DNA from: a virus
Direction: 5' to 3' (one strand)
DNA: 64,000 nucleotides
IMG/VR virus record: IMGVR_UViG_3300046170_000274
Location: 2,897-66,896 of that record
Part shown: positions 1 through 33,324 of the stretch, piece after piece
Layout: each line of letters begins with the position of its first letter
How positions within the stretch are numbered: the stretch's first letter is position 1
Made by a program: the position numbers and the translations under genes
The notes under the pieces: model-generated
Databases searched by the model: none
What the model was told of the DNA's origin: nothing
What the model saw: the letters and a program-made list of their open reading frames with translations, nothing else

Positions 1-339
1 ATACCGTTTAATAAAGATGAAGGCATCAGAGCCATAGCTGCTGATTCAGAAGAAGGTAAAGAAATTACAAAAGGTATATTAGATTTAGCAGATAGATCTA
101 GTGGAGAAAATATTGTTACACTTGCGGATCCTGTATTAGATGCCATTACAGCAATTAAAGCTTTAGAACCTATGGATGCTATGAAAGAAGCAAACTTAGT
201 TGCAGGTAAACAAGGTAAGTATGCAAACTTATCTGATGAACAAGGTAAACAAAATTATAGAAGATACTAACGATCATATCTTTGAAAGAGATCCTATCGA
301 ACCAGAAGACTTTGCAGAAGGTGGACGTGTTAATTTTAA
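1..339 (+). repeat. Wrap-around repeat block 1, copy A (copy B at 60637-60975)
   Basis: By-eye alignment: about 13 substitutions (about 8 synonymous) and 2 single-base indels in ~339 nt; identity ends after ggtggacgtgttaattttaa. Confidence 0.95.
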
Positions 340-1585
340 AGATGGTGGAAGAACAAATTTTTTTAAAGGAGCACAAGCAGATACTAAAAAAGGTAAATCT
401 ATGTCACCAGGAACTTCTGCTAAAGGAGTAGGTAGACAAGATAGAGATTCTCAATACACAGGTGGAGGATATGATTCTTCAAAAAATAAATCAGGAAGAA
501 CAACTACAACAAGCGGAGAAGGTGGAGGAAGTGGTTATACACCAACTTCAGAACCACAAAATATTGATAACAAATTAGTAGCCGAAACAGGTGTTATAGA
601 AAAACAATTAGAAAAAAAATTAAAAAGCTTAATACCAGCAGATTTAAATAAAGATGAAGAAGCTTTATTTCTTATGAACTTAAAAGAAAAATATTTTCCT
701 ACAAAAAGAATTAATGATCCATTTTTTAGAAATACTCAAATTAAAGACAAAGAAATTAATTTACTAGATACTAATCTTTTAGATTTTAAATTAAAACATC
801 CAAACATAAGTATTGAAAACGAATCAGGTTTTATTGATAGAGACAAACTAAAAACAGTAATTGATAATGCACAAATTGTTGGAGATGCATCTTTGTTAAA
901 TGACACATTACAGTTATCTAGAAATCTAGATACTATGGGATCAGGTATAACAGAAATTAATTATACTCCTAATGAGTATCTTAATTTAACCAGTTCTAAT
1001 GTTGAAGATAGAAACTATGATATTACAGGAAAACTTCCAATAGGTCCTTTTGATTTATCTACACAATTAAATTATATGGATAATGAACTTTTAAATAAAA
1101 CCGACAGAATTAATTACGATCAAGATGGTGTAAAAGGTTCTTATGTAGCCGATAAAGATTCTGTAAGACGTAATTTAGATTTAGATAAAAATTATAATAT
1201 AGGTAATTTTGATTTTAGTTTAAAAGGAGGATATGATGATGTTAAATATGATGACGGATATTCTAGATATAGTTCTACTTTAACTCCTAAAATATCTTAC
1301 TCTAATAATATTGGAGATGGCATATTTAAAACAAGTGTTGCAAAAGAACTAATAGAGGGAGGTCAAGTTCCCAATTTAAGTTTCTCTGGTTCTTATCCTG
1401 TAATGGGTGGAGAGCTCACAGGAAATTTTACTAATGTATTAAGTGATGACATGGGTAGTACCATAGGATATGATTATTCCAAAGGTTTACCAGGAAGTAA
1501 TAATTATTTAGAATTTAAAGCAAGAACAGATCCTTTTAACTTAAGAGACTCTGCTTTATTTTTTGGACTTAGAAAGGAAATTTAA
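1..1585 (+). CDS. Putative virion cargo protein A, allele 1 (5' part missing, indel near 243); C-terminal beta-strand-rich module
   Basis: Continuation of the gene starting at 59475; FAEGGRVNFKDGG motif followed by a ~400-aa allele-specific region. Confidence 0.7.
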
Positions 1586-1727
1586 TGGCTTACATATTTG
1601 ATCCAATACGAAACACATTTGTAGATGATGAAGATACAAGTCTTGGTAACAAACTTGCATTAAACGATAACGATGAGTTAGATAAAGCGATTAGACAGCT
1701 CGATGAGCAGTTTGGTCCAGGCACCGT
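1583..1727 (+). repeat. Wrap-around repeat block 2, copy A (copy B at 61915-62054)
   Basis: taatggcttacatatttgatcc...ttaaacgata near-identical in both copies, then gagcagtt(t/c)ggtccaggcaccgtg. Confidence 0.9.
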
Positions 1728-4700
1728 GCAGGAAGGTACAGAAGGTATACCAACCCCTCCTAAAACTATCGAGAGAGATATGTTTAAAAATGCGTTTAAA
1801 GAAAGCGCAGCAGATGGTGGTATGATTGGTGGTGGAACTATAGTCGGTCAAGATATGGGTAATAGAACTGGGTTTGTTGATCCCAAACTTATAATAGGTG
1901 GTTCAAGAACACCTCCACAGTTTAAAGGTATGTTTGGAGTAAGAACAAGTTTAACCGTTCCTGAAAATACACAAGGCTATTTAGGAATGAGTGGTGAACA
2001 GGCTGTATTTGCAACAGAAACAGATGCTCAAAGATTTATAGATGAGGACATACAAAAATTAAATAAAATTGCACAAGAAAATAAAAAAAGAAGTCCTGTT
2101 ATAGAAAAAAGATTAGAAGACATAAGAGAGTATGTTAAAAATTTAAAAGCTTCTGGATCAAAAAAAATATATTTAGATGATATCATAGATAACTTTATAG
2201 GTTCTAAAACTGTTTTTGGAACTGGTAGATATCAAGATGATCAAACAGAAATTAAATCAAGAGTTTCTATAAGAGATAATATTAGAGAAGCTTTAGGTGA
2301 TAAAGAATATAACAAGTTAGAAAAAGGACCTGGAGGAGATAGAAGAATTGTAGATGAGAAAAAAGTTAAATTTAATAAATTAGTACAAGACGTAAATAGA
2401 GGTGATTTACCTATATTAGAATTGGGATCTGAAGCAAGAGGAACAACAACTAATATTAAACAATATCTAACAGCTAATAATAAAAAAAGATTTGATAAGC
2501 TACTTTCTAAATTAAGAGCAATAAACTCTAGATTATCTCAACCACGATCTATTTATACCGATGCAGATCTTGATACAATTTCTAAAACTACTACAAAAAC
2601 ATTTAATAAAATGACAAAAGATTTTCCTAGCGCTATTGAGTCTAGAACTTTAGTATTTAAAGGTGGCACAAGATTTTATGATGCTAAAAGTTACGCTCTT
2701 GCTTTGATTGGAAGACATGTTGAACAAGGAGGTAAACTTTACAAACATGTGGGTGGTGACACTATGAAAGATGTAAAATTTAGAAACACAAAAACTAATA
2801 AATTAATTACTATTAGAAATATGGATTTAAATAGCCCAGAGTTTAAAGAAGTTACTAAAGTTTATAATGAATTTGAAAAATTAAAAAACAGTCAAATAGA
2901 TAATCCATTAACCGGTGAAAAAATTTCGCTTAACAATGCTATAAAAGAAGGTTCAGGTGGAAAAGATTATATAATAATAGATCATACAAAAGGTATTAAA
3001 AAAAGTCCTTTAAAAAATTTAATTATTACTACTCAAAAACAAAACATAGGTTTTGAATTAGCAGGATTAAGTGACCAAGATAAAAAAAGATTTTATAGAG
3101 AAAAAGTAGATTTTGATACTAACTTAGATAGATTTACTAAATATGGTCAAAGACTTTTAACAAAAGGTAATTACAAAAAACCTACAGAAACTGTTGAAGA
3201 ATCAAGATCATTATTAGATAAAATAAAAAGTGGCGCCTCATCTATTAAAAACAAAATGGATGCTACTAAAATGCTTTCGAGTAAAATACCCGGTGGAGCT
3301 ATTGCATTAACTCCTCTTGATTTTACAATGAGCATGGCTTCAGGAATGCCTTTAGCAGAATCATTAGCTAGTGCTGGATCTTATTTAATTAAAGATCCAT
3401 ACTTAGGAAGAGCTGTTAATGTGCCTTTAGCAATAGCACAAGATATGCAAGATCCAGAACAAGCTTTAGCAAAAGGAATTGAACGTGGAGAAAAAGCAGA
3501 AGCTTTCTTACAAGATTTAGTAAGTGGTTTAAAAGAAGGTGCCGGTGATCAACCTGATATAGATCCTTTTCAAGCAGCAGAAGGTGGCCGTGCAGGATAT
3601 AAAACAGGTGGTGGTGTAGAAATTACTCCAATGCCAAGAGTAGATTTCAATGGCGGTGGTGCAGTTGGTGCTGATGATGACTTTGCAAAAGAACTAGAAT
3701 ATTTTTTATTGAACCCAGAAGCTGAATTACCAAAAGCAGATAGCTACAGAGAAACCATGAACCCTGTTGCGTTATTAAATGACATGATCGATCCAAGAAA
3801 CTACGCATACTACGCAGATAGATTAGCAGAGACTGGTATTAGAGTTGGTGAGTTTGGTGCAAGAGTATTACCTGCACTTGGTCAGTTGACCGCGGATCTT
3901 ATACAAAGACCTGCGTTCAAAGTTACAGGCGGCACGGGTCAAGGTTATGTTCAAGACTACACAGATATAATGCCATCTAATATTAAAGGTACAGGAATCT
4001 TTACTGAGTTCTTAGATAACTTAGTTGGAACAGAAGGTACAAAAGTTATTACAGAAAAAACAGGATTAAAAAGTTTAATTGAATCTGAAGAACAAAAACA
4101 AAAAGATAGAAGATCAACTATTGGTCCTAAAGTATTAGCAGACCAAGTAACTCTTGGTGCAGAACTTACAGCACCTATATTTCCTGGTTTAAAATTATTA
4201 AAAGCTTATGCTAAAAATAGAAAGCTACCGGTTAATGATACGACAAAAGAAATTTTAAACAAAGAAATTGATGAAGTGTTATCAGCACAAAATTTAACAC
4301 GTAGAGATTTTTTAAAAGCAACAGGTGCAGGTGGTACAATTATTCTTGCTAAGATGTTAGGCTTTGGAGATGAACTTGCAACTACAACTAAGGTTGCAGA
4401 AAAAGTTGCAAAAGACACAGTAGGTGGAACTTACCCTCCTCCGTATTTTTTTAAACTAGTAGAAAAAATTAGATTTATGGGAGACGACATAACTGAAAAA
4501 GCTGCAACACAAGATAGACAAGTTGTTAAAAAATATAAAGATTATGAAATGAGTGAAGATGCTGCAACAGGAGAAATTACAATTTTAAAAAGAAATGAAG
4601 GATCTTTTTATGATCAAGATGGTATACTATCTGAAGAATATATAGTTTATAAACCAGGTATAGCTGATGAGACAACAAAAGGCACTCCTCCTCCTGAATA

Positions 4701-4824
4701 TGAAGAGTTTACATTAAGACCAGATGGTGAGGGTAAATTAAAAGATTCTGAAGATGGCCTAGATAGCATAGAAGAAATTTTAGAAGAAGTAGGTGACCCT
4801 GATTCTTTAACACTTAAAAAATGA
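1585..4824 (+). CDS. Putative virion cargo protein B, allele 1 (1079 aa), with central HNH-like module and internal twin-arginine-like motif
   Basis: Intact ORF; AADGG and AAEGG motifs; IIIDH...NLIITTQKQN; LTRRDFLKATGAGG. Confidence 0.7.
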   Translation: MAYIFDPIRNTFVDDEDTSLGNKLALNDNDELDKAIRQLDEQFGPGTVQEGTEGIPTPPKTIERDMFKNAFKESAADGGMIGGGTIVGQDMGNRTGFVDPKLIIGGSRTPPQFKGMFGVRTSLTVPENTQGYLGMSGEQAVFATETDAQRFIDEDIQKLNKIAQENKKRSPVIEKRLEDIREYVKNLKASGSKKIYLDDIIDNFIGSKTVFGTGRYQDDQTEIKSRVSIRDNIREALGDKEYNKLEKGPGGDRRIVDEKKVKFNKLVQDVNRGDLPILELGSEARGTTTNIKQYLTANNKKRFDKLLSKLRAINSRLSQPRSIYTDADLDTISKTTTKTFNKMTKDFPSAIESRTLVFKGGTRFYDAKSYALALIGRHVEQGGKLYKHVGGDTMKDVKFRNTKTNKLITIRNMDLNSPEFKEVTKVYNEFEKLKNSQIDNPLTGEKISLNNAIKEGSGGKDYIIIDHTKGIKKSPLKNLIITTQKQNIGFELAGLSDQDKKRFYREKVDFDTNLDRFTKYGQRLLTKGNYKKPTETVEESRSLLDKIKSGASSIKNKMDATKMLSSKIPGGAIALTPLDFTMSMASGMPLAESLASAGSYLIKDPYLGRAVNVPLAIAQDMQDPEQALAKGIERGEKAEAFLQDLVSGLKEGAGDQPDIDPFQAAEGGRAGYKTGGGVEITPMPRVDFNGGGAVGADDDFAKELEYFLLNPEAELPKADSYRETMNPVALLNDMIDPRNYAYYADRLAETGIRVGEFGARVLPALGQLTADLIQRPAFKVTGGTGQGYVQDYTDIMPSNIKGTGIFTEFLDNLVGTEGTKVITEKTGLKSLIESEEQKQKDRRSTIGPKVLADQVTLGAELTAPIFPGLKLLKAYAKNRKLPVNDTTKEILNKEIDEVLSAQNLTRRDFLKATGAGGTIILAKMLGFGDELATTTKVAEKVAKDTVGGTYPPPYFFKLVEKIRFMGDDITEKAATQDRQVVKKYKDYEMSEDAATGEITILKRNEGSFYDQDGILSEEYIVYKPGIADETTKGTPPPEYEEFTLRPDGEGKLKDSEDGLDSIEEILEEVGDPDSLTLKK

Positions 4825-4979
4825 AAAAATTAACTAAAACAATACCACCTAAAAGAGGTCCTAATCCACAGGGGTTGAATATTCCTCTAAAACAAGTTAA
4901 AGTGTCAAATACACAGGAGAAAATAAATGGCAGACATAGACAAGTCTTTACCAAACGTAAAGACATCAATAACGGTTGA
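4821..4979 (+). CDS. Small basic peptide (MKKLTKTIPPKRGPNPQGL...), 52 aa
   Basis: ATG overlaps the upstream stop (ATGA); manual translation; below ORF-track cutoff. Confidence 0.5.
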   Translation: MKKLTKTIPPKRGPNPQGLNIPLKQVKVSNTQEKINGRHRQVFTKRKDINNG

Positions 4980-7364
4980 TCCCGAAGAAGAAATAGAAAT
5001 TGCAGAACAGAAGGAAATAGAAGCTTCTGAAGAACCTGTAGAGGTTAACCCTCAAGAAGATGGTAGTGTAGAAATTAATTTTGATCCAAGCAAAGTAAAC
5101 ATTGAAGGTCAACAAGGACATTTTGATAACTTAGCAGAATTATTACCTGAAGATATTTTAGATCCAATAGGAAGTGAGTTAGTTGAAAACTATATGGACT
5201 ACAAAGCATCAAGAAAAGATTGGGAACAATCTTACACAACAGGTTTAGAATTACTTGGTTTTAAATATGAAAACAGATCAGAACCTTTTCAAGGAGCTAG
5301 TGGTGCAACTCACCCAGTTCTTAGCTGAAGCTGTTACACAGTTTCAAGCGGGAGCTTACAAAGAATTATTACCAGCAGAAGGACCTGTTAGAACTCAAAT
5401 AGTAGGTAACTCAGATCAAAATAAAGAAGCTCAAGCACAACGTGTTAAAGATTACATGAACTATGAGTTAATGGAAAAAATGAATGAGTATGAACCAGAG
5501 TTTGATCAAATGTTATTTCACTTACCATTAGCTGGATCTACATTTAAAAAAGTTTATTATGACGATTTACTAGGACGAGCTGTTTCAAAGTTTGTTCCAG
5601 CAGATGATTTAGTCGTTCCGTATTCTGCTACCTCATTAGAGGATGCGGAAGCGATTATTCAAACAATTAAAATATCAGAAAATGATTTACGTAAACAACA
5701 AGTAGCTGGTTTCTACAGTGACATTGAATTACAAAAACCACAAAGTATTTCAAAAGACGAAATAGAAAATAAAGAGAGAGAATTAGAAGGAACTAAAAAA
5801 ACAGGTAAGCAAGAAAATATTTATACTTTATTAGAATGTCATGTTAATTTAGATTTAGAAGGATTTGAAGATAAAGACCAAGAGTTAAATGAAACAGGAA
5901 TTAAGTTACCGTATATTGTAACTATTGATGAATCATCTAGACAAGTTTTATCTATCAGAAGAAACTTTGAACCAACAGACCCAAAGAAAAATAAAATACA
6001 ATATTTTGTACATTTTAAATTCTTACCAGGTTTAGGTTTTTATGGTTTTCGGTCTAATCCACATGATAGGTGGACTGTCTAGAACAGCGACCGCAGCTTT
6101 GAGACAGTTATTGGATGCGGGAACGTTATCTAATCTGCCAGCTGGATTTAAACAACGTGGAATAAGAGTTAGAGATGAAGCAGCACCATTACAACCAGGT
6201 GAATTTAGAGATGTAGATGCTCCAGGTGGTAATTTAAGAGATGCTTTTATGACTCTTCCTTACAAAGAGCCATCAGGAACGTTATTACAATTAATGGGAA
6301 TAGTTGTACAAGCTGGTCAGAGATTTGCAGCTATTGCTGATATGCAAGTGGGTGAGGGTAACCAAGGCGCTGCAGTAGGAACTACTGTTGCACTTCTTGA
6401 ACGTGGTTCACGTGTTATGTCTGCAATACATAAAAGATTATATTCAGGTATGAAACAAGAATTCAAATTATTATCTAAAGTATTCAAAACATATTTACCA
6501 CCTGTTTATCCTTTTGATGTAGTAGGTGGCAGAAGAGAAATTAAACAAATGGATTTTGATGACAAAGTAGATATTTTACCTGTTGCAGATCCAAACATTT
6601 TTTCTATGGCGCAAAGAATTTCTATGGCACAAACTGAATTGCAACTTGCAACATCACAGCCACAACTGCATAATTTATATGCAGCTTATAGAAAAATGTA
6701 TGAAGCATTGGGTATTAAAAATATTGATCAAATATTACCACCTCCTGCACCAGTTCAACCAATAGATCCAAGTTTAGAACACATAAATGCTTTGGGTGGA
6801 AAACCTTTTCAAGCTTTTCGTGGACAAGACCACACTGCACACATAACTGCACACTTAACTTTTATGTCAACTAATATGGTTAGAAATAATCCTGCTATTA
6901 TGGCATCAATTCAAAAAAATATTCTTGAACATATTAGTCTAATGGCACAAGAACAAGTAGAATTAGAGTTTGCAGAGCCATTACAACAAATGCAAATGCT
7001 TCAAATACAAGCTCAACAAGATCCACAAGCTAAACAACAGCTTCAACAGTTGTCAGAACAGATAGAAGCAAGAAAAGCAGTGTTAGTTGCAGAGCTAACA
7101 GGCGATTTTGCTAAAGAAGAAAAAGAAATTACGTCTCAATTTGACTCTGATCCACTTTTAAAACTAAAATCTAGAGAAGTTGATCTAAGAGCAATGGAAA
7201 ATGAACGTAAAAAAGAAGCTGATGAAGCAAAAGCTGACCTAGATAGAGCAAAATTAGTTCAAGCTAGAGAAATTTTTGACGATAAGCTTGAACAAAACCA
7301 AGATTTAGCAGAATTAAGAGCTGGAGTAAGTCTTGCAAAAAAAAATAATACTAATATAAATTAA
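4927..7364 (+). CDS. Portal protein (split by two apparent sequencing indels near 5320 and 6050)
   Basis: Three overlapping ORFs join into ~810 aa with portal-like motifs (EPFQGASGATHP, LPLAGSTFKKVYYD, FLPGLGFYG, LLDAGTLSNLP); lies between terL and capsid genes. Confidence 0.85.
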
Positions 7365-7378
7365 TAAAGGTAAAAAAT

Positions 7379-7558
7379 ATGATAAATTACAAAAAAACAA
7401 AAGAAGTTAGCATTCCTGAACAAAATGTAGAGATAGATCCTAGATCTAAGACTACAGCTGATGGTGCATTTAACTATATTCCTACTGGAGACAAGGAAAA
7501 AGTTAGAGGACAAAAAAGAATGTTAGCTGAAAAGAAAAAACCAGCTACTTGGTACTAA
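7379..7558 (+). CDS. Hypothetical protein, 59 aa (MINYKKTKEV...KKPATWY)
   Basis: Manual translation; AAAGG RBS; fills an intergenic gap. Confidence 0.6.
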   Translation: MINYKKTKEVSIPEQNVEIDPRSKTTADGAFNYIPTGDKEKVRGQKRMLAEKKKPATWY

Positions 7559-7561
7559 ATT

Positions 7562-7948
7562 ATGTGGTTATCGGCAATTAAACTAGCCGTTTCTGCTGGT
7601 AGTAAAATTTATGCTAACAAGCAGAAGACGAAAATGGCAATGAGTGAAGCACAACTCATGCACGCTACAAAAATGGCCGAAGGTCAGGAAGCTTACCAAG
7701 GAAAACTTTTAGAAGCCCGTCAATCGGACTGGAAAGACGAGGCGGTTTTGATAATTTTAAGTTTGCCCGTGTTGGTGCTCGCTTGGGCAGTGATATCGGA
7801 TGACCCAACAGCGATGGACAAGGTAAAATTGTTTTTCGATATGTTCTCGCAGCTCCCGTCATGGTTCACAAATCTTTGGATCCTTGTCGTGGCGTCGATA
7901 TATGGTATAAAGGGTACACAAATTTTTCGTAACGGAGGAAAAAAATAA
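7562..7948 (+). CDS. Membrane protein, holin-like
   Basis: SDWKDE followed by two hydrophobic helices and a basic C-terminus, a pattern seen in 3TM-type phage holins. Confidence 0.5.
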   Translation: MWLSAIKLAVSAGSKIYANKQKTKMAMSEAQLMHATKMAEGQEAYQGKLLEARQSDWKDEAVLIILSLPVLVLAWAVISDDPTAMDKVKLFFDMFSQLPSWFTNLWILVVASIYGIKGTQIFRNGGKK

Positions 7949-8151
7949 TGAGAAAAAAAATGATGGGTGGCGGAATGTCAAACAGAGTAATGTATAAAGC
8001 AGGTTCTTCAAATCCAAAAGTAAGTAAAGCTGTTAAGAAAAAAATTAAAAAGAAAAGTAAATTTCCAGATCATTCTGGTGATGGTAAAATTACTCAGAAA
8101 GATATTTTAATGGCTAAAGGTGTAATTCCAAAAACTAAGAGTAAAGCATAA
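7948..8151 (+). CDS. Small Lys-rich protein with an EF-hand-like loop
   Basis: PDHSGDGKITQKDIL; MMGGG...RVMYKAG motif. Confidence 0.65.
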   Translation: MRKKMMGGGMSNRVMYKAGSSNPKVSKAVKKKIKKKSKFPDHSGDGKITQKDILMAKGVIPKTKSKA

Positions 8152-8360
8152 TGGCAAAACTTTGTGCAAAAGGAAAAGCAGCAGCGAAGCGTAAATTTAA
8201 AGTTTATCCTTCGGCGTACGCAAACATGTATGCATCAGGAGTTTGTTCAGGTAAAATAACACCAGGCGGTAAAAAAAATAAAAAAGCTTCTGGTGGTTTG
8301 ATGAAACAAGAATTTCGTGTAGGTGGATTAGCTAGACGAAAGAGAATGAGCTGTGCGTAG
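8151..8360 (+). CDS. Small basic phage protein
   Basis: AAKRKFKVYPSAYAN; ASGG motif; translationally coupled to neighbours. Confidence 0.65.
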   Translation: MAKLCAKGKAAAKRKFKVYPSAYANMYASGVCSGKITPGGKKNKKASGGLMKQEFRVGGLARRKRMSCA

Positions 8361-8610
8361 AAATTTTTCAGATGGAGGTGGATTAAGAAAATGGGTAGCC
8401 GAGAAATGGGTAGACATTGGAGCACCGAAGAAAGACGGCAAGTATCAACCTTGCGGGAGAAGCAAAGGCTCGAAGAGGAAATATCCAAAATGCGTCCCAC
8501 TTGCAAAAGCCACACGGATGACAAAAGGGCAAAAGGCGAGTGCTGTCAAACGAAAACGAGCAGCCGGTAATCCTGGCGGTAAACCAACTAACGTAAAAAC
8601 ATTTGCATAA
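8353..8610 (+). CDS. Small basic phage protein
   Basis: LRKWVAEKWVDI...CGR...YPKCVP; RRNFSDGG motif. Confidence 0.65.
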   Translation: MRRNFSDGGGLRKWVAEKWVDIGAPKKDGKYQPCGRSKGSKRKYPKCVPLAKATRMTKGQKASAVKRKRAAGNPGGKPTNVKTFA

Positions 8611-8765
8611 TGAACTTAGAAAAAGATTTACAAAGATTAAAAAAAGAAAAACAGATGAAAGAATCTGCTATCGCACAACTTAGAAAAAGAAGCAAAGATT
8701 CTAATGCTAGACCTAGAGCAGAAAAAAATATACTATCTAACAACCCAAATTTACAAAAAATATAA
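8610..8765 (+). CDS. Small basic hypothetical protein, 51 aa
   Basis: Manual translation MNLEKDLQRL...NLQKI; TAATG coupling at both ends. Confidence 0.55.
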   Translation: MNLEKDLQRLKKEKQMKESAIAQLRKRSKDSNARPRAEKNILSNNPNLQKI

Positions 8766-9656: not shown

Positions 9657-9674
9657 ACATAGGAAGGAGTAACT

Positions 9675-10665
9675 ATGCCAGAAGAAGAAAAAAAACTAGT
9701 ACCTATTGATACATCAGGACCTGATGCGGAAGTAGATATTGAAGAAGAAAAAGATGAATCCGTTATTGAAACGGAATCTTCAAATGAAGGAACAGAACAA
9801 GGAACAGATAAAACATATGAAAATGAAAGAGAAACAAAGTTAGAAGAAGGCGGACAAGTACAAGAAGAAAAAGAAAAAAAGGATGATGAACAATTAGAAG
9901 ACTATAGTAAAGGTGTTCAATCTCGTATTGCAAAACTTACTCGTAAAATGAGAGAAGCCGAGCGAAGAGAAAAAGCTGCTTTAGAATATGCTAAAGCTGT
10001 TGAAGCAAAAAGACAAACTGTTGAAACTAAATTTACAAAAGTAAATGAAGATTATGTAAAACAGTTTGAAACTAGAGTACAATCTGGTTTAGAATCTGCG
10101 CAGAAAGAACTTGCAACTGCAATTGAAAATTCAGATGCTGTTGCACAAATAGAAGCTCAGAAAAAAGTTGCTGCTTTATCAATTGATGAAGCTAGACTTA
10201 ATGCTTTAAAAGAACAACAATCAATAAAAAAAGAAGAACCTGCACCTAAATTATCTGATGCAGATAATCTTCCAAGTAGCACACCAAGTAGCTTACCTTC
10301 TCCAGATCCTAGAGCTGAAGATTGGGCTAGTAATAACTCATGGTTTGGTAAAAACAGAGCTATGACATTTACAGCCTTTGAAATACACAAGGATTTAGTG
10401 GAAAGAGAAGGTTTTGATCCTCAAACTGATGAATATTATGCGGAAGTTGATAAAAGAATAAGACTTGAATTTCCTCAAAATTTTGATACAAAGAGAATCA
10501 CAAACGTCTAAACCGACGCAAAAAGTTGCTTCTGTCAATCGTTCTACAACTAGACAAGGCAGAAAAACTGTGAGACTCACTTCATCACAAGTAGCGATAG
10601 CTAAAAAATTAGGAGTGCCACTTGAAGAATACGCAAAACAAATAAAACTCACGGAAGGAGCGTAA
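9675..10665 (+). CDS. Capsid scaffolding protein (indel near 10490)
   Basis: Acidic coiled-coil; W..NNSWFG; C-terminal LTSSQVAIAKKLGVPLEEYAK; upstream of the capsid genes. Confidence 0.7.
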
Positions 10666-10666
10666 A

Positions 10667-12741: not shown

Positions 12742-12999
12742 ATGACAAAATTTATAGTAAACATTTGGGCGTATAATCATCACGCTAAATTTAAAGTAGA
12801 ATCAGAAGATTCCCCAACTGACCTTGAAAAATCTATCCTTGACAAACTTGGAGAAAACAGTATAGTTTGGGAAAACCTTGGAAATAGTTATAATGACAAG
12901 GTAAATAGAATAACCTATGAGGAGGTTATAGATGATACAAGACCTATACAAAGCAAAAAGGTCCTTGGAGTTGAAGTGGGAACAGGAGCATCTAGATAA
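12742..12999 (+). CDS. Hypothetical protein
   Basis: 85-aa ORF with AGAAAG upstream. Confidence 0.5.
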   Translation: MTKFIVNIWAYNHHAKFKVESEDSPTDLEKSILDKLGENSIVWENLGNSYNDKVNRITYEEVIDDTRPIQSKKVLGVEVGTGASR

Positions 13000-13141
13000 T
13001 AATAGATACACTCTTGAGATGGTCAGAATCGATGACAAAGTAAAACAAATCATCACTGACATTAAGCTGGAAGAAGCAGCAATTGCCCATAGACAGAACA
13101 ATGTTGAAAGTTCTGCTCCAGAAGTTTCAGTAGCTACTTAA
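12932..13141 (+). CDS. Hypothetical coiled-coil protein
   Basis: GGAGG RBS upstream; 69 aa. Confidence 0.55.
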   Translation: MIQDLYKAKRSLELKWEQEHLDNNRYTLEMVRIDDKVKQIITDIKLEEAAIAHRQNNVESSAPEVSVAT

Positions 13142-13189
13142 TAAAAAGCTACATCGTTGGAAAAAATCCACTCCACACTACAGGCTCTC

Positions 13190-13218
13190 TTGCACTCTAC
13201 TAAAAACTAGTATATAGT
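13190..13218 (+). promoter_or_regulatory. Sigma70-like promoter
   Basis: TTGCAC-17 nt-TATAGT upstream of the 13304 gene. Confidence 0.5.
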
Positions 13219-13303
13219 TTTATTACTATATAAATTAATTAGAACATAGACGTGTATAGTCGACGGCCTAGAGACTATGTTCGGAAACTAGGAGGATATA
13301 ATT

Positions 13304-23786: not shown

Positions 23787-23787
23787 A

Positions 23788-24087: not shown

Positions 24088-24089
24088 TT

Positions 24090-24909: not shown

Positions 24910-24912
24910 ACC

Positions 24913-25356: not shown

Positions 25357-25362
25357 TAAATT

Positions 25363-26091
25363 ATGGCATCATCTTTTTCAACAAACTCAAAATTAGAACT
25401 TGTAACCACTGGTGAAAAAGCCGGTCTTTGGGGTACAATTACTAATACAAACTTACAAATATTAGAACAATTATCTACAGGTTATTTATCATCTGCACAA
25501 CTTGCAAGTGGTGATCTTACTTTAGCACTAGACAATGGTGCTACTTCTAATGGTAAAAATTTATATATAAAACTAACAGGTACACTTGGTGCAAACAGAA
25601 ATGTAACAATACCTGATAGCGCTGAAAGAGTTATTATATTTGAAGATGCAACAACAAGAGGAACATCTACTCTATATACAATAACAGTTAAAACTGTTTC
25701 AGGATCCGGGGTCGTATTACCTATAGGATCAACATCACTAGTATATTCAGATGGTACAAATGTTAGTCTTGGAATAAGACAAAAAGGTTATGTAACATTA
25801 AACTCTTCAACAATTACTGCATATACTGCAGTCGATGGTGATCAAATTTTAGCTAATACAACAGCTAACCCAATCACTGTAACACTACCTGCATCACCTG
25901 CAACAGGTTCTGAAGTTACATTTGTAGATGCTAGAGGAACTTTTAATAATAACAACTTGATTATAAATAGAAACAGTCAACCAATTAACTCAGGTACATC
26001 TAATTTAACTTTAAGCACGGCAGGTCAAGCTTTTTCATTAGTGTATGTGGATTCAACAAGAGGTTGGGCATATAAAACCAACACGGCGTAA
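25363..26091 (+). CDS. Tail/baseplate-like structural protein
   Basis: WGTITNTNL; ITVTLPASP..G..V..VD..GTF..NNL...LVYVD..RGW domain. Confidence 0.6.
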   Translation: MASSFSTNSKLELVTTGEKAGLWGTITNTNLQILEQLSTGYLSSAQLASGDLTLALDNGATSNGKNLYIKLTGTLGANRNVTIPDSAERVIIFEDATTRGTSTLYTITVKTVSGSGVVLPIGSTSLVYSDGTNVSLGIRQKGYVTLNSSTITAYTAVDGDQILANTTANPITVTLPASPATGSEVTFVDARGTFNNNNLIINRNSQPINSGTSNLTLSTAGQAFSLVYVDSTRGWAYKTNTA

Positions 26092-26103
26092 GGAGCACGG
26101 ACC

Positions 26104-28311
26104 ATGGCCCTTATTGATTTTAAAGTACTACCAGGGATTGACAAACAAGACACAACATCTGGAGCAGAAAACAGATGGGTTGATTCTGACAACACAAGAT
26201 TTAGATATGGTCTACCAGAAAAAGTAGGTGGTTGGTCATCTTTAATTTCAGATAGTATTGTAGGTGTTGCAAGACGTGAGTTTGCTTTTGTAGATTTAGA
26301 AGGTAACCGTTATGTTGCAATAGGAACTGATAAATTTTTACTTTTATATTTTGAAGGTCAAATATTTGACATCACACCTATAAAAACACCATTATCTTCA
26401 TCAACAATAGCAACAGTAGATAGTTCCGCAGTCTGTACAGTTACAACTACCTCAACACATGGGTTTGAACCTGGAGATATTGTTTTGTTTGATAGTGTGA
26501 CTTTACCAGGTGGAACTGGATATAGTGCATCTGACTTTGAAGATAAATTATTTCAAGTTATATCTACACCTACTTCAGTAACATTTACAATTACACAAAG
26601 CAGTAATGCTAGCGGCACAGTATCTACAGGTGGTAGTATATCTGTAATACCTTATGAACAAGTTGGTCCGGCTGCACAATCTTATGGTTATGGTTTTGGT
26701 ATTGGACAATATGGTGGAACAGTACCGGGTGCACAACAAACTACTTTAAATGGTGGATTAGATGCGGACACTGCAGGTACAGGTGGATCAGGGACTGTTA
26801 TTAACGTTACATCAAACACAGGTTTTCCAACAGCAGGAACTATAGCTGTAGGAAATGAATTAATAACTTACACTGGAAAAGGTACAAACACTTTAACAGG
26901 TATTACTAGAGGAGCTTTTGGAACTGCAACTACGGGTACTTCAAATGGTCAAGCTCACTCAACAGGTGCAACTGTTACAGATGCATCAAGCTTTACAGGT
27001 TTTGGAAGTGCTGTACAAGCTTCTGAAGTAACCCTAGAACCAGGTCTTTGGAGTCTCAGTAATTTTGGTCAGGTGTTAGTTGCAACCATTGCAAATGGTA
27101 AAACTTTTACATGGAATGCAGGAGCAGCATCACCCTTAACTGTTAGAGCATCAACAAGCACATCTGGTTTCTCAACCTCAAATAATCCAACTGCAACCAG
27201 GGTTACGTTAGTTTCACCTACAACACGTCACTTAATTCATTTAGGTACAGAAACAACTATTGGAGATACATCTAGCCAAGATGATATGTTTATAAGATTT
27301 TCTGATCAAGAAAATATAAACGATTATACACCAACAGCTATTAATTCCGCTGGATCACAAAGACTACAAGATGGAACAAAAATTATAGGTTCGTTAAAAG
27401 CAAAAGAAACAATTTTAGTTTGGACTGATAATGCATTGTATACTATGAAATTTATTGGTGCACCTTTTACATTTGGGTTTGAACAAGTTGGTACTAACTG
27501 TGGATTGATTGGTAAGAATGCAGCTGTAGAAATAGATGGTGTTGCATTTTGGATGAGCACAAATGGTTTTTTTATGTTTGATGGTACGGTTAAATCTTTA
27601 CCATGTAGTGTTGAAGACTATGTTTACGATCAAGCAGATACCACAAAAGGTCAACAAATAGCAGCAGGTATTAATAACTTATTTACAGAAGTTGTTTGGT
27701 ATTATCCTTCAACTAGTTCTGATTACAATGATCAGTATGTTGCATTTAATTATGGTGAACCTATGAGAGGTGGTGTTTGGTATATTGGAACAGAAGCTAG
27801 AACTTCTTGGATTGATGCAAGTGTATATCAAAAACCAATAGCAACTAAATATAACTCATCTTCTAATGGAACTTTTCCTGAAGTTATAGGTCAAGATGGT
27901 TTAGGTCAAACACAATTATTTGAACATGAGGTAGGCACAGATCAAGTTAATCAAGACGGAAGTACAACAACGGTTACATCTTTTGTAAAATCATATGACT
28001 TTGATATACAATCAAGACAACAAGGTACAGAAGGTATTTCAGGAGATATATTTTTAGCCATGAGAAGATTTGTACCAGACTTTAAAAATTTACAAGGAAA
28101 CGCTAAAGTAACACTAGCTGTTAAAAGATATCCTCAACAATCAGATACAACAACGGCCTTAAGTCCCTTTACAATTAACTCTAGCACTGATAAAAAGGAT
28201 ACTAGAGCCAGAGGAAGATTTGTTAACATTAAGATAGAAAACACTGATGTTAGTGAGTCTTGGCGTTTTGGCACATTACGAATTGACATACAACCAGACG
28301 GACGTAGATAA
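26104..28311 (+). CDS. Tail nozzle / tail tubular protein B-like
   Basis: 735 aa; RFRYGLPEKVGGW, FIRFSDQE, NCGLIG, C-terminal WRFGTLRIDIQPDGRR. Confidence 0.7.
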   Translation: MALIDFKVLPGIDKQDTTSGAENRWVDSDNTRFRYGLPEKVGGWSSLISDSIVGVARREFAFVDLEGNRYVAIGTDKFLLLYFEGQIFDITPIKTPLSSSTIATVDSSAVCTVTTTSTHGFEPGDIVLFDSVTLPGGTGYSASDFEDKLFQVISTPTSVTFTITQSSNASGTVSTGGSISVIPYEQVGPAAQSYGYGFGIGQYGGTVPGAQQTTLNGGLDADTAGTGGSGTVINVTSNTGFPTAGTIAVGNELITYTGKGTNTLTGITRGAFGTATTGTSNGQAHSTGATVTDASSFTGFGSAVQASEVTLEPGLWSLSNFGQVLVATIANGKTFTWNAGAASPLTVRASTSTSGFSTSNNPTATRVTLVSPTTRHLIHLGTETTIGDTSSQDDMFIRFSDQENINDYTPTAINSAGSQRLQDGTKIIGSLKAKETILVWTDNALYTMKFIGAPFTFGFEQVGTNCGLIGKNAAVEIDGVAFWMSTNGFFMFDGTVKSLPCSVEDYVYDQADTTKGQQIAAGINNLFTEVVWYYPSTSSDYNDQYVAFNYGEPMRGGVWYIGTEARTSWIDASVYQKPIATKYNSSSNGTFPEVIGQDGLGQTQLFEHEVGTDQVNQDGSTTTVTSFVKSYDFDIQSRQQGTEGISGDIFLAMRRFVPDFKNLQGNAKVTLAVKRYPQQSDTTTALSPFTINSSTDKKDTRARGRFVNIKIENTDVSESWRFGTLRIDIQPDGRR

Positions 28312-29402
28312 TGGCAGTTAGATATCCAGACATAAATGATCCAAGAATACCTGAGCTAATACCTAATCAAAGACTTATAGATATTAGAGAACAATTTGGT
28401 GTTCCAGGTGAATTTTTATTAGATGATTATAATCAGTATTATACAAACATGAATGATAATCAACCTATTGAAAAAATAGATGATGGTGTTTCTCCTGATT
28501 TTAAAGAATATATTATGGCTGGTGGTGGAAGTGGAGGTGGTGGAGGTGTAACTCCTGAATTATTAGGAAGTCAAGATGGTGCAATTGGTTATGTTAGACC
28601 TCTTGATTCAAAAGATGGTATAACATCTTTACAAAATTCTATGACTGGTTCTTTTGATATAACTCCAGTGACAAAAGAAGAATTTGAAAAAAACAGAGCA
28701 CTTAATTCTAGATTTATAGATTACAATGATTATTTTCAAAAAACTGTTGCTGATGGGCAGTTTTCTTTTCCAAAAGAAAAAACAGGTATTTTACAAAACA
28801 TAAAAGATGGTGGTAGTAAATTTTTAGACTTTATAAAAAAAGGTGGAGTTATAGGTAATATGGTATCAGAATTTTTACCTGAACAAGATCCAAGATCAAT
28901 CTTTATGAGAAATTATTATGGTGGTAAAGATAGTAGTAATTTGACTAGTTCTGGTTCTATAGCATCTGGTTTAATGAAAGGTTACAACCCTGTATCAGGT
29001 GGTGGTTTATATACACTAACAGGTGGTAGATATGGAGATGAACCTACATATGGTTTACAAAATGCTTATGACAGAAGAATAGATACTATTAGAAAAACTT
29101 TAGCTAAACAAGCCAATGATATTGCAACAGGTAAAAGAACAAAACCAGTTTCAGAAGTTTTAAGAGAACGAATAGAAAAACTAAGAGAAGAAAAAGCAAG
29201 AGAAGCAGAAGCTTTTCGAGAAACACAAAGACAAGCAGAAGCAGATAGAATTAGAAATACATATCAACAACAGCAGCAACAAATAAGAGATTCAGGGGGC
29301 TATGCAGAAGATGGTGGAGGTGGTCCTAGACGAGGTGCTTCAGATATACCTGATAGAAATAGAGGTAGTTATGCTACCGATGATACAGCGAGTTTTTTCT
29401 AA
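28311..29402 (+). CDS. Gly/Gln-rich hypothetical protein, probably internal virion
   Basis: 363 aa; low-complexity C-terminus resembling that of cargo A allele 2. Confidence 0.55.
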   Translation: MAVRYPDINDPRIPELIPNQRLIDIREQFGVPGEFLLDDYNQYYTNMNDNQPIEKIDDGVSPDFKEYIMAGGGSGGGGGVTPELLGSQDGAIGYVRPLDSKDGITSLQNSMTGSFDITPVTKEEFEKNRALNSRFIDYNDYFQKTVADGQFSFPKEKTGILQNIKDGGSKFLDFIKKGGVIGNMVSEFLPEQDPRSIFMRNYYGGKDSSNLTSSGSIASGLMKGYNPVSGGGLYTLTGGRYGDEPTYGLQNAYDRRIDTIRKTLAKQANDIATGKRTKPVSEVLRERIEKLREEKAREAEAFRETQRQAEADRIRNTYQQQQQQIRDSGGYAEDGGGGPRRGASDIPDRNRGSYATDDTASFF

Positions 29403-29566
29403 TGGCAAAAGTAGTAGTAAGATTACCAGAACCAAAAGAAGAGTATGACTTTTCTAACCAAAAACAAATTAACAGAGCAATTGCTTTGATTGTAGAACAA
29501 TTAAATTCTACATTTTTAAACGAACAAAAACAAGATCAAGAAAGGTTTGCGTGGTTTAATGGCTAA
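29402..29566 (+). CDS. Small hypothetical protein, 54 aa
   Basis: Manual translation MAKVVVRLPEPKEEYD...ERFAWFNG. Confidence 0.55.
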   Translation: MAKVVVRLPEPKEEYDFSNQKQINRAIALIVEQLNSTFLNEQKQDQERFAWFNG

Positions 29567-29897
29567 CATATATAAAAATGCAAAAGTAGATTTAACTACT
29601 AACACAGTTACAACTGTGTATACTTGTCCATCAAATTCTAGATCTATTTTAAAGTCTATGTATGTATCAGAAGATAGTGGAAATGCAGATACAATTACAG
29701 TAAAATTATTTGCTGGAGATCCAGCAAGTGCAGATTCTTTTAGCTTATATAATGTAAAATCTATTGATGCTAATGCAACAGAACAATTAATAACAGAACC
29801 CATTGTAATGATGGAAAACGAAGTATTGCAAGTAACAGCAGCTACAGCAAATAGGTTGCATGTTACATTGTCTATGCTAGAAATAAACAGGGATTAA
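29559..29897 (+). CDS. Small structural protein
   Basis: MANIYKNAKVDL...VYTCP; similar in style to the 17778 product. Confidence 0.6.
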   Translation: MANIYKNAKVDLTTNTVTTVYTCPSNSRSILKSMYVSEDSGNADTITVKLFAGDPASADSFSLYNVKSIDANATEQLITEPIVMMENEVLQVTAATANRLHVTLSMLEINRD

Positions 29898-29899
29898 AT

Positions 29900-30146
29900 A
29901 TGTCATTTATAGAAACAGAAGCTTCAGTAAGATACGAAATAGTTAATGGTAAAAAGGTTATGATTATCACACCTAAAAGTGAAGTTACCTTTAACTAATA
30001 TAAGAACAGGTCAAGAATATATGTCAGATGCAGAATCGGATGCTGATGTAAATAACCCTGAAACAGATACTAAAAGAGAAGACATACGTAGAGATGTTAA
30101 AATAACAGTAGAAGAATTTAACTTAGGAGCAGGTTCTGAGTTGTAA
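29900..30146 (+). CDS. Hypothetical protein (indel near 29990)
   Basis: MSFIETEAS... joins ...RTGQEYMSDAE...RRDVKITV. Confidence 0.5.
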
Positions 30147-30174
30147 AACTCAAGCTTGTTAGATATAATAAATT

Positions 30175-31402
30175 ATGGCAATTTCAAGAATGCAAGAACC
30201 CAGACAGAATTACGGACTAGGAAGCTTTGTAAAGAAAGTTACAAAAAAAATAACTAAACCTTTTACAAAAGTTGCTAGTAAAATTGTACCAAAAGAAATA
30301 GCAGGTATTATGAGAGTTGCTGCACCTTTTTTACCACCAGGATACAGAGAAGCTGCATACTTGTTAGGTACAGCAAAACAAACAGGTAGAATTAGTCCAA
30401 TGGATTTAGCCTTAGCTGCAGCACCTACGTTTTTTAATAAAACGCAAATGGGTCAAGGTATCAAAACTAAAGTAGGTAATTTTACATTACCGGGTATGGA
30501 TAAAAATTTAGGTGAAATGGCTGTAGGTACTATAAAAAATGTTGGAGGTAGTAAAGATGCTACAAAAGGTTTTTTTGGTACAGGGGGCGAGTTTAATTTA
30601 TTAAAAGGTTCTATGTTAACAAAACCTGATGGTAGTTTAAGTTTTTCAAAAGCAGCAGGAATAGGGACTGGTTTATTATCTTTAATACAATCTGCTAGCA
30701 CACCAGAAGAAGCAGGAAATGCTTTAGCATCTTCAACAGGAAATTCTGATGATTATCAAAGAGGTTATGATATGTTTAATACGTTAAATACAGATGCTTT
30801 TAAAATAGATGATCAGTATGTACAACACAGCAGCTAACGGTGGTTTAATGAGAACTAACTATGCAATGGGTAGTGATGATGAACCAAAACCATTACCTAA
30901 TGACCCTACAGAACCGGTCAATCCTTTTAGACCAAAACCAATAGGTCCTTTTCCATCTAAAATGGCTGACATGAAAAGTTACAGTGATTACTATAAAAAT
31001 TTAGATCTAGAAAAAGCTAAAGAAATGTTTATAGAATTTAATGGAAGAGAACCTATAGACATGCAAGAACTATTACAGTTTTTTAAAGTAAAACAACAAG
31101 CTGCAGATGGTGGTTTAATGAGAAGTAATTATGCTCTTGGATCAATGCCCACGAAACAAGAAAGTGGTCTAGGAGGGCTTCCAATTGAGGCAGATATGAG
31201 GTATACTGGTGGCTTCATGCCATATGGTGCAGTTGAAAAAGCCGATGACGTGCCTGCTAGATTAAGCAAAAATGAATTCGTATTTACCGCAGATGCTGTA
31301 AGAGCAGCAGGTGGTGGTAGTGTACAACAAGGTGCTAAAAAAATGTATGACGCTATGAAAAAATTAGAACAACAACCTGAAGCAAAAGGAGCAATGGCAT
31401 AA
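30175..31402 (+). CDS. Internal virion / ejection protein (indel near 30825)
   Basis: Two ORFs join; AA(N/D)GGLMR.NYA.G occurs twice; C-terminal KADDVPARLSKNEFVFTADAVR. Confidence 0.65.
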
Positions 31403-32275
31403 TGGCTGAAGAAATAATTAATAAAACGATAACCACAGCACCCGATTATTTACAACCGGGTATAGAAAAATATTTAGAAGGTGCAACATTACAAGCTGGT
31501 CAAAGAATGGATACCTCCAAGTTTGCACCAGGTGTTGCAGGCATAGGTTCACTACAACAACAAGCACAACAATTAGCAGCAACTCAAGCAGGACTTGGTA
31601 CTTTACAATTTGATCCAAACACAGGAACAGTTTCTGGTGTTCAAGGTCAAGGTGTTGCAGGGTATCAACCTTTTTTACAAGGAGCAGCTGCAATGAGTGG
31701 TCCACAAGCTTATCAACAATTTGAATCTCCTTATCAACAAGCAGTAAGAGATGCTACACTACAACAATTTGATCAACAAGCAGCAGCTAGACAACAACAA
31801 ATAAGTGATCAAGCTGTAGCTGCAGGTGCATTTGGTGGTGGACGTGAAGGAGTACAACAAGCACAATATCAAAACAAATCTGATATGGATAGAGCTTTAC
31901 TTGCAGCACAATTAAATCAAGCTGGATTTAGTCAAGCTAATCAATTAGCTGCACAAGGATTTGGTCAACAATCACAATTAGCACAACTACAACCTCAACT
32001 AGCTCAACAAGGTATTGGTTTAGCTCAAGGTTTAGGACAACAAGATTTTGGATACAGACAAGCAGTAATGGATACAGGGTCAACAAGCAAACAGAATGGC
32101 AGCGTATGAACCTATCGAAAGACTTGCGAGATTTGGTCAAGGTCTAACTGGTGTCGGAGGCGGATTAGGTTCTGTTCAAACAACTTATGGAACACCTCCT
32201 CCTCAACAAAGTCCAATGGCAGGAGCGCTACAAGCAGGAATAGGAGCATTTACATTAGGTAAATTGTTTAGTTAA
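31402..32275 (+). CDS. Gln/Gly-rich ejection (DNA pilot-like) protein (indel near 32080)
   Basis: SPYQQAV...AGAFGGGR; Q-rich; follows the nozzle gene. Confidence 0.65.
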
Positions 32276-33324
32276 TGAATTATAAAGTAATGCAAAGACC
32301 GATGTTTAAACTAGGAGGCAAGGCTGCTTCTCAAGGTACAGGTATTACATCTGGTTTAGATGAGAAAGTAAATTACTCTATTGGTGGTGGAGTTATTCAA
32401 GGACAAAACATGGGTGCAAGAGAAGGTTTTAAAGATCCTGAATATACTTACGACTCTCTTTTAAAGAGAGCTATAGGTAAGATAGAAAAAAGAGATGCAG
32501 CTATGGATGGTATGGATAATTTAATTAACATGCAAGCTTTACAACAAGCATCAAATGTTTTGGCAGGAGAAACATCGAACAATCCATTAGACATACTAGT
32601 TAATTTTGCAAAACAAGGTACATCAATTGCACTACCTGCATTGTCAGCTAAAAAAAAATTAGAACTTAAAAGACTAGATCCCTCAACTGATTTAGCTTTA
32701 GCTAAAGCGTTTAAACCAACTTCAGGAGGTTTTTCTACAAAATTAAAATCACAAGCTGCATTAAAAGGAATACAAGCAGACATTAATAAATTAAGAGGTA
32801 TGATAACAGAAGAGACAACTGATAAAGAAAGAGAATTTATTGAAAGTCAAATAAATGAATTAAGAGAACAAAAAAGAATTTTCTTAAGTGGAAATCCTTA
32901 TTTAGAAGCTATAAAATTATATTATCAATTTGATATTAGAGGTCAATCAGGAGCTGATCCAAGACCAGAAGATATAGAAAAATATTTAAAATACACAGGT
33001 GGTGGTAACGCAATGGGTGGAACTCCTAATAGAGTAGATAGACAAATGGGATCACCTATGATGGGTGAACAACCTATGGCACAACCACAACAAATGGCAG
33101 CACAACAAGACGTTGCTATGGAAACACAGCAAGATTCAGGTAACAAAGTATATGCAATGTTAAGATCTAGATTACCACAAGAAATTTCAGATGAAGTTGT
33201 TCAACTTATATCTTATAATAAAGAAGCATTTGCAGATTTTGCAAGCATCAAAAATCAAGAAGACGTATCATCATTTAATGACAAATACGGAGTTCAGTTA
33301 GTCATAGATGTGGCTACCGTTTAA
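32275..33324 (+). CDS. Internal virion / ejection protein
   Basis: RPMFKLGG start; C-terminal LRSRLP.EI.D.VV...DFA.I....DV..FN.KY.V.L. Confidence 0.6.
   Translation: MNYKVMQRPMFKLGGKAASQGTGITSGLDEKVNYSIGGGVIQGQNMGAREGFKDPEYTYDSLLKRAIGKIEKRDAAMDGMDNLINMQALQQASNVLAGETSNNPLDILVNFAKQGTSIALPALSAKKKLELKRLDPSTDLALAKAFKPTSGGFSTKLKSQAALKGIQADINKLRGMITEETTDKEREFIESQINELREQKRIFLSGNPYLEAIKLYYQFDIRGQSGADPRPEDIEKYLKYTGGGNAMGGTPNRVDRQMGSPMMGEQPMAQPQQMAAQQDVAMETQQDSGNKVYAMLRSRLPQEISDEVVQLISYNKEAFADFASIKNQEDVSSFNDKYGVQLVIDVATV

Follow-up and report, generated by a model that had tools for sequence, protein, structure and literature searches.

The DNA analysed here (the window) is a 64,000-nucleotide stretch comprising bases 2897-66896 of the virus contig IMGVR_UViG_3300046170_000274, which totals 66,896 bp, and its subject is a short peptide motif that recurs in a restricted set of the encoded proteins. 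The contig is of the HTVC023P type of pelagiphages, and its PHROGs and Pfam matches are those of a podovirus. At the head start, the gene order according to PHROGs and Pfam is TerL, gene A, gene B and an SU10-like portal. These are followed by a membrane protein and small basic proteins, then by GroES, a coiled-coil scaffold-like protein (9675-10511) and the capsid protein. Further downstream lie an SU10-like adaptor, fibres and a 'stabilization'-type protein (PHROG 3287; P22-gp10-like, tail-hub), then unknown late genes, and finally endolysin and replication genes. The closest record is phage 023Pt_psg01 (68.8% identity on a 735-aa protein), and the Pelagibacter phages HTVC027P (lytic, in culture on Pelagibacter HTCC1062) and HTVC023P show about 46% identity.

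The motif is bipartite. A hydrophobic residue followed by A-x-G-G is separated by a spacer of 0-8 residues from the core R-x-x-[FY]-x-x-G-[GS], which commonly begins R-[VI]-[GN]-[FY]. Between G-G and the core, 1-4 residues are found in variants and up to 8 in gene B; N-terminal versions consist of the core alone, without the A-x-G-G half. A very clean consensus, hydrophobic-A-[DE]-G-G-R-[VI]-[GN]-[FY]-x-x-G-[GS], was derived from 28 distinct 14-mers pooled from the window, three reference genomes and 80 portal-centred IMG/VR loci. An earlier note on this DNA had described a recurrent tag of this kind; the tag is borne out, with the correction that it is built of two parts joined by a variable spacer. 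Copies occur at all 11 of the places which that note had named, in open reading frames of the + strand.

For the enrichment test, the core (R/K-x-x-F/Y-x-x-G-G/S) was counted by class of open reading frame (ORF), and the expectation was taken from 200 within-protein shuffles. Ten candidate ORFs (2,863 aa) contain 12 core copies against 0.45 expected, and all remaining ORFs (13,472 aa) contain 3 against 1.06 expected. These three are one copy in head and tail proteins (7,043 aa; 0.51 expected) and two in replication and lysis proteins (4,677 aa; 0.35 expected), whereas the other late ORFs (1,752 aa) have none. When an upstream G-G is included, 8 copies are found in the candidate ORFs and none elsewhere. 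The comparison of gene classes that the earlier note proposed therefore places the motif in the candidates. The note had not noticed it in capsid, tail or replication proteins; the core is present once in the head/tail class and twice in the replication/lysis class. Fisher P values (2e-7 and 9e-7) are circular, because the candidate class was partly defined by the places where the motif had been seen; the shuffle expectations are free of this circularity. The coordinates of two small ORFs used in the count overran their stops by a few codons, which left the hits unaffected. A motif hidden Markov model (HMM) built from the 28 seeds scored at least 8 bits at 10 places in the + strand ORFs of four genomes; the - strand ORFs of these genomes gave no hit, and neither did ten shuffles. 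These statistics are partly circular. The recurrence of the motif is confirmed as real and specific to the candidate set.

Outside the window, an independent scan of IMG/VR was performed with DNA encoding only A-D-G-G-R-V-G-F. It returned 116 stretches, and 80 of these were fetched. Glycine occupies the unconstrained position three residues past the phenylalanine in 68 of the 80, in contigs with a GC content of 0.29-0.40 (five at 0.50-0.57). The 12 stretches without this glycine, all with GC of at least 0.50 and mostly in short ORFs, look like chance matches. The carriers fall into about 20 mutually unrelated protein groups, and an identical downstream module can be found after N-terminal parts of 22 to 904 aa. 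Carrier location was informative in 15 of 19 representative loci: seven carriers lie in the TerL-portal interval, five after the PHROG 3287 tail-hub protein, and three adjoin or are fused to a PHROG 4287 'DNA ejection protein'; the other four loci are without an informative neighbour. The motif exists in 81 distinct nucleotide versions, with 3-5 synonymous codons at each conserved position, a pattern which indicates that selection acts on the peptide and not on the DNA. A DNA-level recombination signal was considered and ruled out, because synonymous codons vary at every conserved position of the motif.

The two genes between TerL and the portal carry the motif at the edges of their variable parts. 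Gene A, variant 1 (200..1585, + strand), starts upstream of the window and is split by a frameshift; it comprises the end of a constant N-domain, a tandem motif at 311-370 (20.3 and 12.7 bits with the motif HMM) and a variable C-terminal module. Variant 2 (59439..61917, +), also frameshift-split, is similar to gene A of locus L007 and has its motif at 60947-60982. The general plan of gene A is a constant N-domain of about 400 aa reaching A-x-G-G. Short forms end exactly at the motif with a 6-residue hydrophobic tail, and in long forms the core is followed by unrelated extra modules. Gene B, variant 1 (1585..4824, +; 1079 aa), has the following layout: a constant N-terminal part of about 75 aa, a half-site with an extended element (1807-1884, the motif copy itself at 1807-1824), a variable central module, a motif pair at 3574-3660 (copies 3574-3612 and 3637-3660) and a constant C-domain. 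Variant 2 (61917..63998, +), with the motif at 62118-62150, is cut by the contig end and shares 97.8% identity with gene B of locus L024 across 694 aa. The order TerL-A-B-portal is found in the window, in L007, L033, L036, L039 and others. No match to gene B was obtained by tblastn against cultured phages.

The presence of two versions of each gene is explained by the contig ends. Contig positions 1-3235 overlap 60631-63871 at 87% identity (352 mismatches, 66 gap positions, 50 gap openings), and a second overlap joins 4479-4624 with 64811-64950. The contig wraps once round a genome of about 60.6 kb, and its two ends come from different population variants. The two alleles of genes A and B reported earlier do differ in sequence; since the contig ends overlap at 87% identity, they represent population variants and not two loci. 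The variants diverge where the earlier note had placed the boundary, at the motif. DNA similarity in gene A spans 1-339 and 60637-60975 and stops inside the motif, and protein similarity between the two copies of gene B ends at residue 81/74.

The same boundaries are seen in other genomes. In 19 full-length gene B proteins, the first motif copy closes a constant N-terminus of about 70 aa, the variable centre takes up 500-770 aa, and the second copy opens a constant C-domain of about 390 aa. Mosaic conservation is found in 155 of 171 gene B pairs. In these pairs the C-terminal high-scoring segment pair (HSP) starts at most 12 aa from the core at 65% of 310 ends and at most 25 aa from it at 87%, and of 308 ends of the N-terminal HSP, 55% lie no more than 25 aa from the first copy. 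In other genomes, too, the limits of similarity mostly fall close to the motif, and its position at cassette junctions is supported both by the mosaic ends of gene B and by the short forms of gene A, which stop at it.

The AlphaFold2 model of the gene B central module (1837-3564) has a mean predicted local distance difference test score (pLDDT) of 76.6, with residues 10-460 mostly above 80. As a whole model it has no match in the PDB at E <= 0.001 (Foldseek), and in a wide search with VIA-align its best Z is 6.5, to a generic helical segment only. About 55 homologues of the module are known at 31-98% identity, in proteins of at least two architectures, with lengths of about 630-750 aa and of about 1,000-1,260 aa; the 630-750 aa proteins are without the constant C-domain, and many short forms end in an acidic-aromatic tail. 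An invariant D-H...P...L...N segment, defined by invariant alignment columns, lies at 2980..3045 (+). In the model it falls on a strand-strand-helix arrangement (DSSP E379-383, E395-399, H400-407), and this topology could be that of a His-Me-finger-like nuclease, a suggestion made without a fold match.

In most examples read, which represent several architectures, the core precedes the central module at a fixed short distance; in a few it is degenerate. This arrangement bears on an explanation that requires no binding partner: the motif could be a hinge and N-terminal cap that stabilises the next domain and was spread by module shuffling, so that its recurrence would reflect descent of the linker. 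The constant position at the N-edge of modules, the coincidence with the start of the ordered part in the central-module model, and the flanks, which are Gly-rich and predicted to be disordered (pLDDT about 30), all accord with it. The AlphaFold2 model of the constant C-domain of gene B is of low confidence throughout (mean pLDDT 43.6, around 30 in the motif region). A cap would not be expected alone at an extreme C-terminus with nothing after it, where copies do occur, and near-invariance amid abundant synonymous change exceeds what is expected of a hinge. Because the downstream modules are unrelated (about 20 groups), one cap could hardly fit all of them. We regard this explanation as unlikely.

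Copies at extreme ends are best seen in the small genes after the portal. A small basic ORF of 67 aa (7948..8151, +), located after the portal and the membrane protein, carries the motif at 7960-8004 with a spacer of 4; this type occurs in 20 related loci (summed occurrences of the listed variants). It is followed by a DUF5872-like gene in two ORFs. The N-half (8151..8360, +) has a terminal motif copy at 8286-8327, and the C-half (8353..8610, +), in the +1 frame, has the core from residue 2 (8356-8379) and matches positions 52-99 of DUF5872. The split is real and conserved, since the same motif-to-motif offset of 73 nt is found in all eight contigs (the window and L007, L008, L011, L013, L015, L019 and L021). 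Several other small ORFs have the core at residues 5-12, and at the opposite end, gene A short forms and other proteins stop 6-11 residues past A-x-G-G. Terminal copies of this kind fit a tag kept by each separately encoded module.

The location of the motif at module junctions could also mean that it is processed during maturation: a protease of phage or host would cut the precursors at the G-G, behind it or behind the Arg, and so free the modules. Head proteins of T4 and phiKZ are precedents for such cleavage, as are the GG-X sites of adenovirus and African swine fever virus core proteins. In its hydrophobic-A-x-G-G half the motif is similar to P2-P1 sites made of small residues, some copies come after a short N-terminal leader, and a review of ejection proteins (PMC8954989) notes that P22 gp20 may be processed by a host enzyme. 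Cleavage would be pointless for a copy at residue 2 or for one situated 6-11 residues before the C-terminus, and the N-terminal copies do not have the A-x-G-G half at all. In addition, a P4-P1 site would not be expected to show two conserved halves on either side of a variable spacer. Among 78 window ORFs searched with PHROGs and 71 with Pfam (23 + 48), no protease family turned up, such as a prohead protease of the T4 gp21/S77, S78/U35 or ClpP/S49 type, although a very remote or novel type may escape such searches; this agrees with the earlier note, in which no prohead protease had been recognised. Neither a C39 nor an adenain/Ulp1-like cysteine protease, as would suit double-glycine or GG-X sites, was detected in the window by Pfam or PHROGs. 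The absence of a recognised protease and the copies at first or last residues weaken the cleavage explanation, and we consider it quite improbable. Of the two functions offered earlier, a loading signal and/or a double-glycine cleavage site, the placement of a tag at module joints stands, and the cleavage part is weakened by the terminal copies.

The third set of carriers lies in a late cluster. The region 30175-37814 is situated downstream of the PHROG 3287 protein (26104-28311), and the same order is seen in psg01, HTVC027P, HTVC023P and DSL-LC04. In P22-like phages the ejection genes follow the tail-hub gene. Ejection protein 1 (30175..31402, +) consists of two ORFs here owing to a frameshift and contains motifs at 30202-30225, 30830-30871 and 31100-31141; most close relatives have a single protein of 402-443 aa. 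The copy at 30830 is present as described earlier, and its apparent N-terminal place is not real, the copy being internal to a protein of about 420 aa in relatives. Ejection protein 2 (31402..32109, +) is Q-rich and motif-less; in its relatives there is a match to PHROG 4287, 'DNA ejection protein' (E 2.3e-10, 6.9e-9 and 5.6e-6), a family also matched by a neighbour or the N-terminal part of carriers in L110, L156 and L139. The window's own ejection protein 2 has no PHROG match at 1e-3, and proteins 1 and 3 have no ejection-family match. Ejection protein 3 (32275..33324, +) begins with 33 residues that contain the core (32296-32319) and are near-invariant in 19 contigs, while the rest is 36-93% identical; within this N-terminus Pro9, Leu13, Gly14 and Gly15 use 3-5 codons each. 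Next is a second core (32365-32388) with an extended element (32365-32450); the middle of the protein is variable, and a motif variant at 33010-33051 precedes the constant C-terminal part of about 70 aa.

Synteny and the PHROG 4287 relatives give fair support for a virion-internal ejection module at 30175-33324. The neighbouring giant protein is distantly related to gp123 of Cellulophaga phage phi18:3 (22% identity over about 480 aa, E 1e-12), which is structural by tandem mass spectrometry according to its record annotation and has one A-D-G-G-R-V copy. The portal-adjacent position of genes A and B and of the small basic ORFs, together with the tag itself, may hint at a virion-internal location of their products. 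PDB sequence and profile searches with ejection proteins 1 and 3 and with alignments A1, A4 and A5 gave nothing below E 0.2.

Two side observations concern ejection protein 1. Its C-terminus (31250-31400) contains a conserved element of about 45 aa that matches short internal segments of siphovirus tape-measure families (PHROGs 5448, 23013 and 6090; tape-measure proteins of Gordonia phages). The start of this element, acidic-I/V-P-A-x-L, is in our view reminiscent of the FtsZ C-terminal peptide. Some relatives of the protein (P0028, P0033, P0051, P0053 and others) have 646-668 aa instead of about 420, a length that, taken by itself, would fit ejection proteins 1 and 2 fused into one.

Pfam searches covered 47 gene A, gene B and other motif-bearing proteins (one row, L085, proved to be a terminase misassigned as gene A). 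Nine match TAT_signal; with the terminase row set aside, no other Pfam domain was found, one IFT57 match (carrier L158) being far below the cut-off. In the window, the TAT_signal match corresponds to an internal twin-arginine (Tat-signal-like) element in the constant C-domain of gene B (4291..4335, residues 903-917, +; 18.4-21.2 bits against a cut-off of 22.7). The residues R252, R253, F255, G260 and A261 are invariant in 22 homologues. The element follows the consensus [ST]-R-R-x-F-L-[KQ] with a G/A-rich hydrophobic stretch and lies deep inside a phage protein of about 1,080 aa. It is also observed in L012, L068, L158 and HTVC027P gp42, and directly after the motif in remoter relatives; TAT_signal scores of 19.6-22.8 bits were obtained as well. 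In the ESM Atlas, the gene B C-domain and the gene A N-domain retrieved only unnamed viral clusters with scores of at most 0.90.

An invariant Tat-like element in a constant domain suggests contact with host envelope machinery, and it could be taken to support docking after ejection, where the core would zip ejected proteins together in a trans-envelope conduit or bind a conserved host factor. By analogy, such a factor may be the apical groove of a chaperonin or a periplasmic PDZ protease reading hydrophobic C-termini. The ejection set is among the carriers, C-terminal variants finish in hydrophobic tails, and a phage-encoded GroES lies beside the head genes; the A-x-G-G-[ILM]-[VMI] variants presumably resemble the GroES mobile loop. 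In the dominant form, Arg and Gly stand at positions that are hydrophobic in a chaperonin-binding loop, and HTVC023P has GroES yet no canonical copies. Co-occurrence with GroES amounted to one sub-threshold match in five other carrier records, four of them fragments. Docking of this kind seems improbable to us.

HTVC023P is informative in another respect. It has a diverged ejection set (none is found by blast), neither gene A nor gene B, and only degenerate motif copies; the motif thus travels with the module set. Profiling for genes present in the three motif-rich genomes and missing from HTVC023P returned the ejection set, a few early genes and an 85-aa ORF. The latter occurs in the window, psg01 and HTVC027P and not in HTVC023P, which is the distribution of the canonical motif. 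Together with adjoining conserved sequence, it occupies 12742-13300, just past the capsid gene.

We tentatively read the motif, at somewhat less than an even chance, as a portable peptide by which proteins that are inside the virion or ejected from it dock. It would be a short linear peptide with a Gly-Gly hinge, a spacer, a strand-like R-x-x-[FY] core and a closing x-x-G-[GS], and it would cap many unrelated modules, either at their N-terminal edge or at an extreme end. Its carriers would form three gene sets: the two hypervariable genes between TerL and portal, the small basic post-portal proteins, and ejection proteins 1 and 3. Through the motif, these unrelated modules could bind one common conserved partner. 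Incorporation into the procapsid beside the portal, the scaffold or the capsid interior would be the most likely use, the tagged modules being packaged and later ejected. As the tag is short and self-contained, modules could be exchanged by recombination without loss of virion incorporation, and such tag-preserving exchange would explain why constant ends and tags surround variable parts. A docking peptide would account for portability, terminal copies, multiplicity and strong selection alike. Loading during assembly is favoured over docking after ejection on two grounds: the carriers are concentrated near the portal and among the ejection genes, and the motif accompanies this set of modules. 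Partner binding and packaging are what we infer from sequence, as is the presence in virions of the small proteins and of the products of genes A and B.

Several points weigh against a docking peptide. In the model of the gene B central module, order begins at the preceding core (pLDDT about 70), which might there act as an intramolecular cap instead of a free tag. Classical loading peptides are N- or C-terminal, and many of the copies here are internal. HTVC023P, a phage without canonical copies, has a major capsid protein of about 73% identity, which argues weakly against the capsid protein as the partner. No docking partner emerged from gene profiling. A complex prediction combined the capsid protein, the C-terminal 440 aa of the portal and the first 60 aa of ejection protein 3, each chain with an alignment; its score of 0.00, obtained without controls, speaks neither for nor against binding. 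Finally, the HMM seeds were taken from the same genomes that were searched, and this is the source of the circularity mentioned above.

Among known systems, the T4 capsid targeting sequence (CTS) of IPI-III and Alt is N-terminal, about 10 aa long and removed by gp21 at L-x-E. Like the motif described here, it is a short peptide common to unrelated capsid-internal, injected proteins and portable to foreign cargo. The CTS is strictly N-terminal and has no Gly hinges, whereas the pelagiphage copies are internal, N-terminal or C-terminal and often several per protein; moreover, neither an L-x-E-type consensus nor a protease family was found in the window. Encapsulin cargo-loading peptides dock on the inner face of an HK97-fold shell, serve interchangeable cargo and usually occur as a single C-terminal copy. 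The resemblance lies in a short Gly-containing terminal peptide, with hydrophobic residues at intervals, on unrelated cargo (about 20 groups), although many copies here are internal. The conserved Arg-aromatic pair is absent from the encapsulin consensus, and docking on the capsid protein would be an analogy. It is conceivable, though doubtful, that the tag is a phage counterpart of these peptides, by which modules are packaged and injected so that the recombining population holds a library of injected proteins. Such a library would include the His-Me-finger-like nuclease module, and modules with an internal Tat-type signal could be redirected to the host envelope after injection.

MuF-type polymorphic toxins and SPP1 gp7-like head proteins are encoded by portal-adjacent genes and presumed to be injected. 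Genes A and B resemble them in being portal-adjacent and in having a constant and a polymorphic part. They differ in lying upstream of the portal and in the place of the variable part, which is central in gene B and C-terminal in gene A. No MuF domain was matched by Pfam in window genes A and B or in 27 of their relatives, and the Atlas gave no named cluster. The variable parts have no toxin domain by Pfam and, for the one confident model, no PDB fold match; no immunity gene was recognised. The 'interchangeable effector domains' of the earlier note are consequently retained as far as exchange at motif-marked junctions is concerned, while their identity as effectors is unsupported, there being no Pfam domain apart from the Tat-like match and, for the one confident model, no PDB fold. 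As far as can be read from the genes, the defining features of the CTS, encapsulin and MuF systems are either absent here or lie beyond sequence analysis.

Podovirus ejection proteins (P22 gp7/gp20/gp16, T7 gp14-16) are similar in forming a cluster after the tail-hub genes and in their mosaic conservation. The relevant passages of the ejection-protein review (PMC8954989) make no mention of a shared sequence tag. A difference is that the tag here extends to genes outside the classical cluster. In T-even tail-fibre adhesins, conserved motifs flank exchanged hypervariable segments and are thought to act as DNA homology. The likeness is in short conserved motifs flanking hypervariable segments exchanged among phages, and the difference is that the constraint here is on the peptide, the codons being free. 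A literature search, with supplementary material outside its scope, found no description of the motif.

The carriers belong to the HTVC023P / vSAG 37-F6 group, which is among the most abundant phages of the ocean and in which almost none of the structural or injected proteins are understood. If the shared tag is real in function, it would provide a sequence rule predicting which dark-matter proteins travel inside virions, and it would explain how a portal-adjacent hypervariable region can diversify without breaking assembly. It could further serve as a small portable peptide for cargo loading into phage capsids. For vSAG 37-F6, a hypervariable island is noted in PMC5490008.

Apart from the motif, two features of the window were observed. 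Many genes throughout it are cut into 2-5 consecutive ORFs by frame changes, for example at 4927-7364, 38549-39982, 43259-44744, 30175-31402 and 33333-37814, and are intact in close relatives. The portal (3 pieces), two helicases, gene A, ejection protein 1 and the giant late protein are affected, all of them whole in relatives. Because the relatives are intact and the 3.2-kb end overlap contains 50 gap openings, the widespread frame breaks suggest an error-prone (long-read-like) or chimeric assembly and not real pseudogenes. Among the replication genes, an ORF at 50073-50513 encodes a homing endonuclease of LAGLIDADG/HNH type (PHROG 5046; Pfam LAGLIDADG_1, 26.5 bits).

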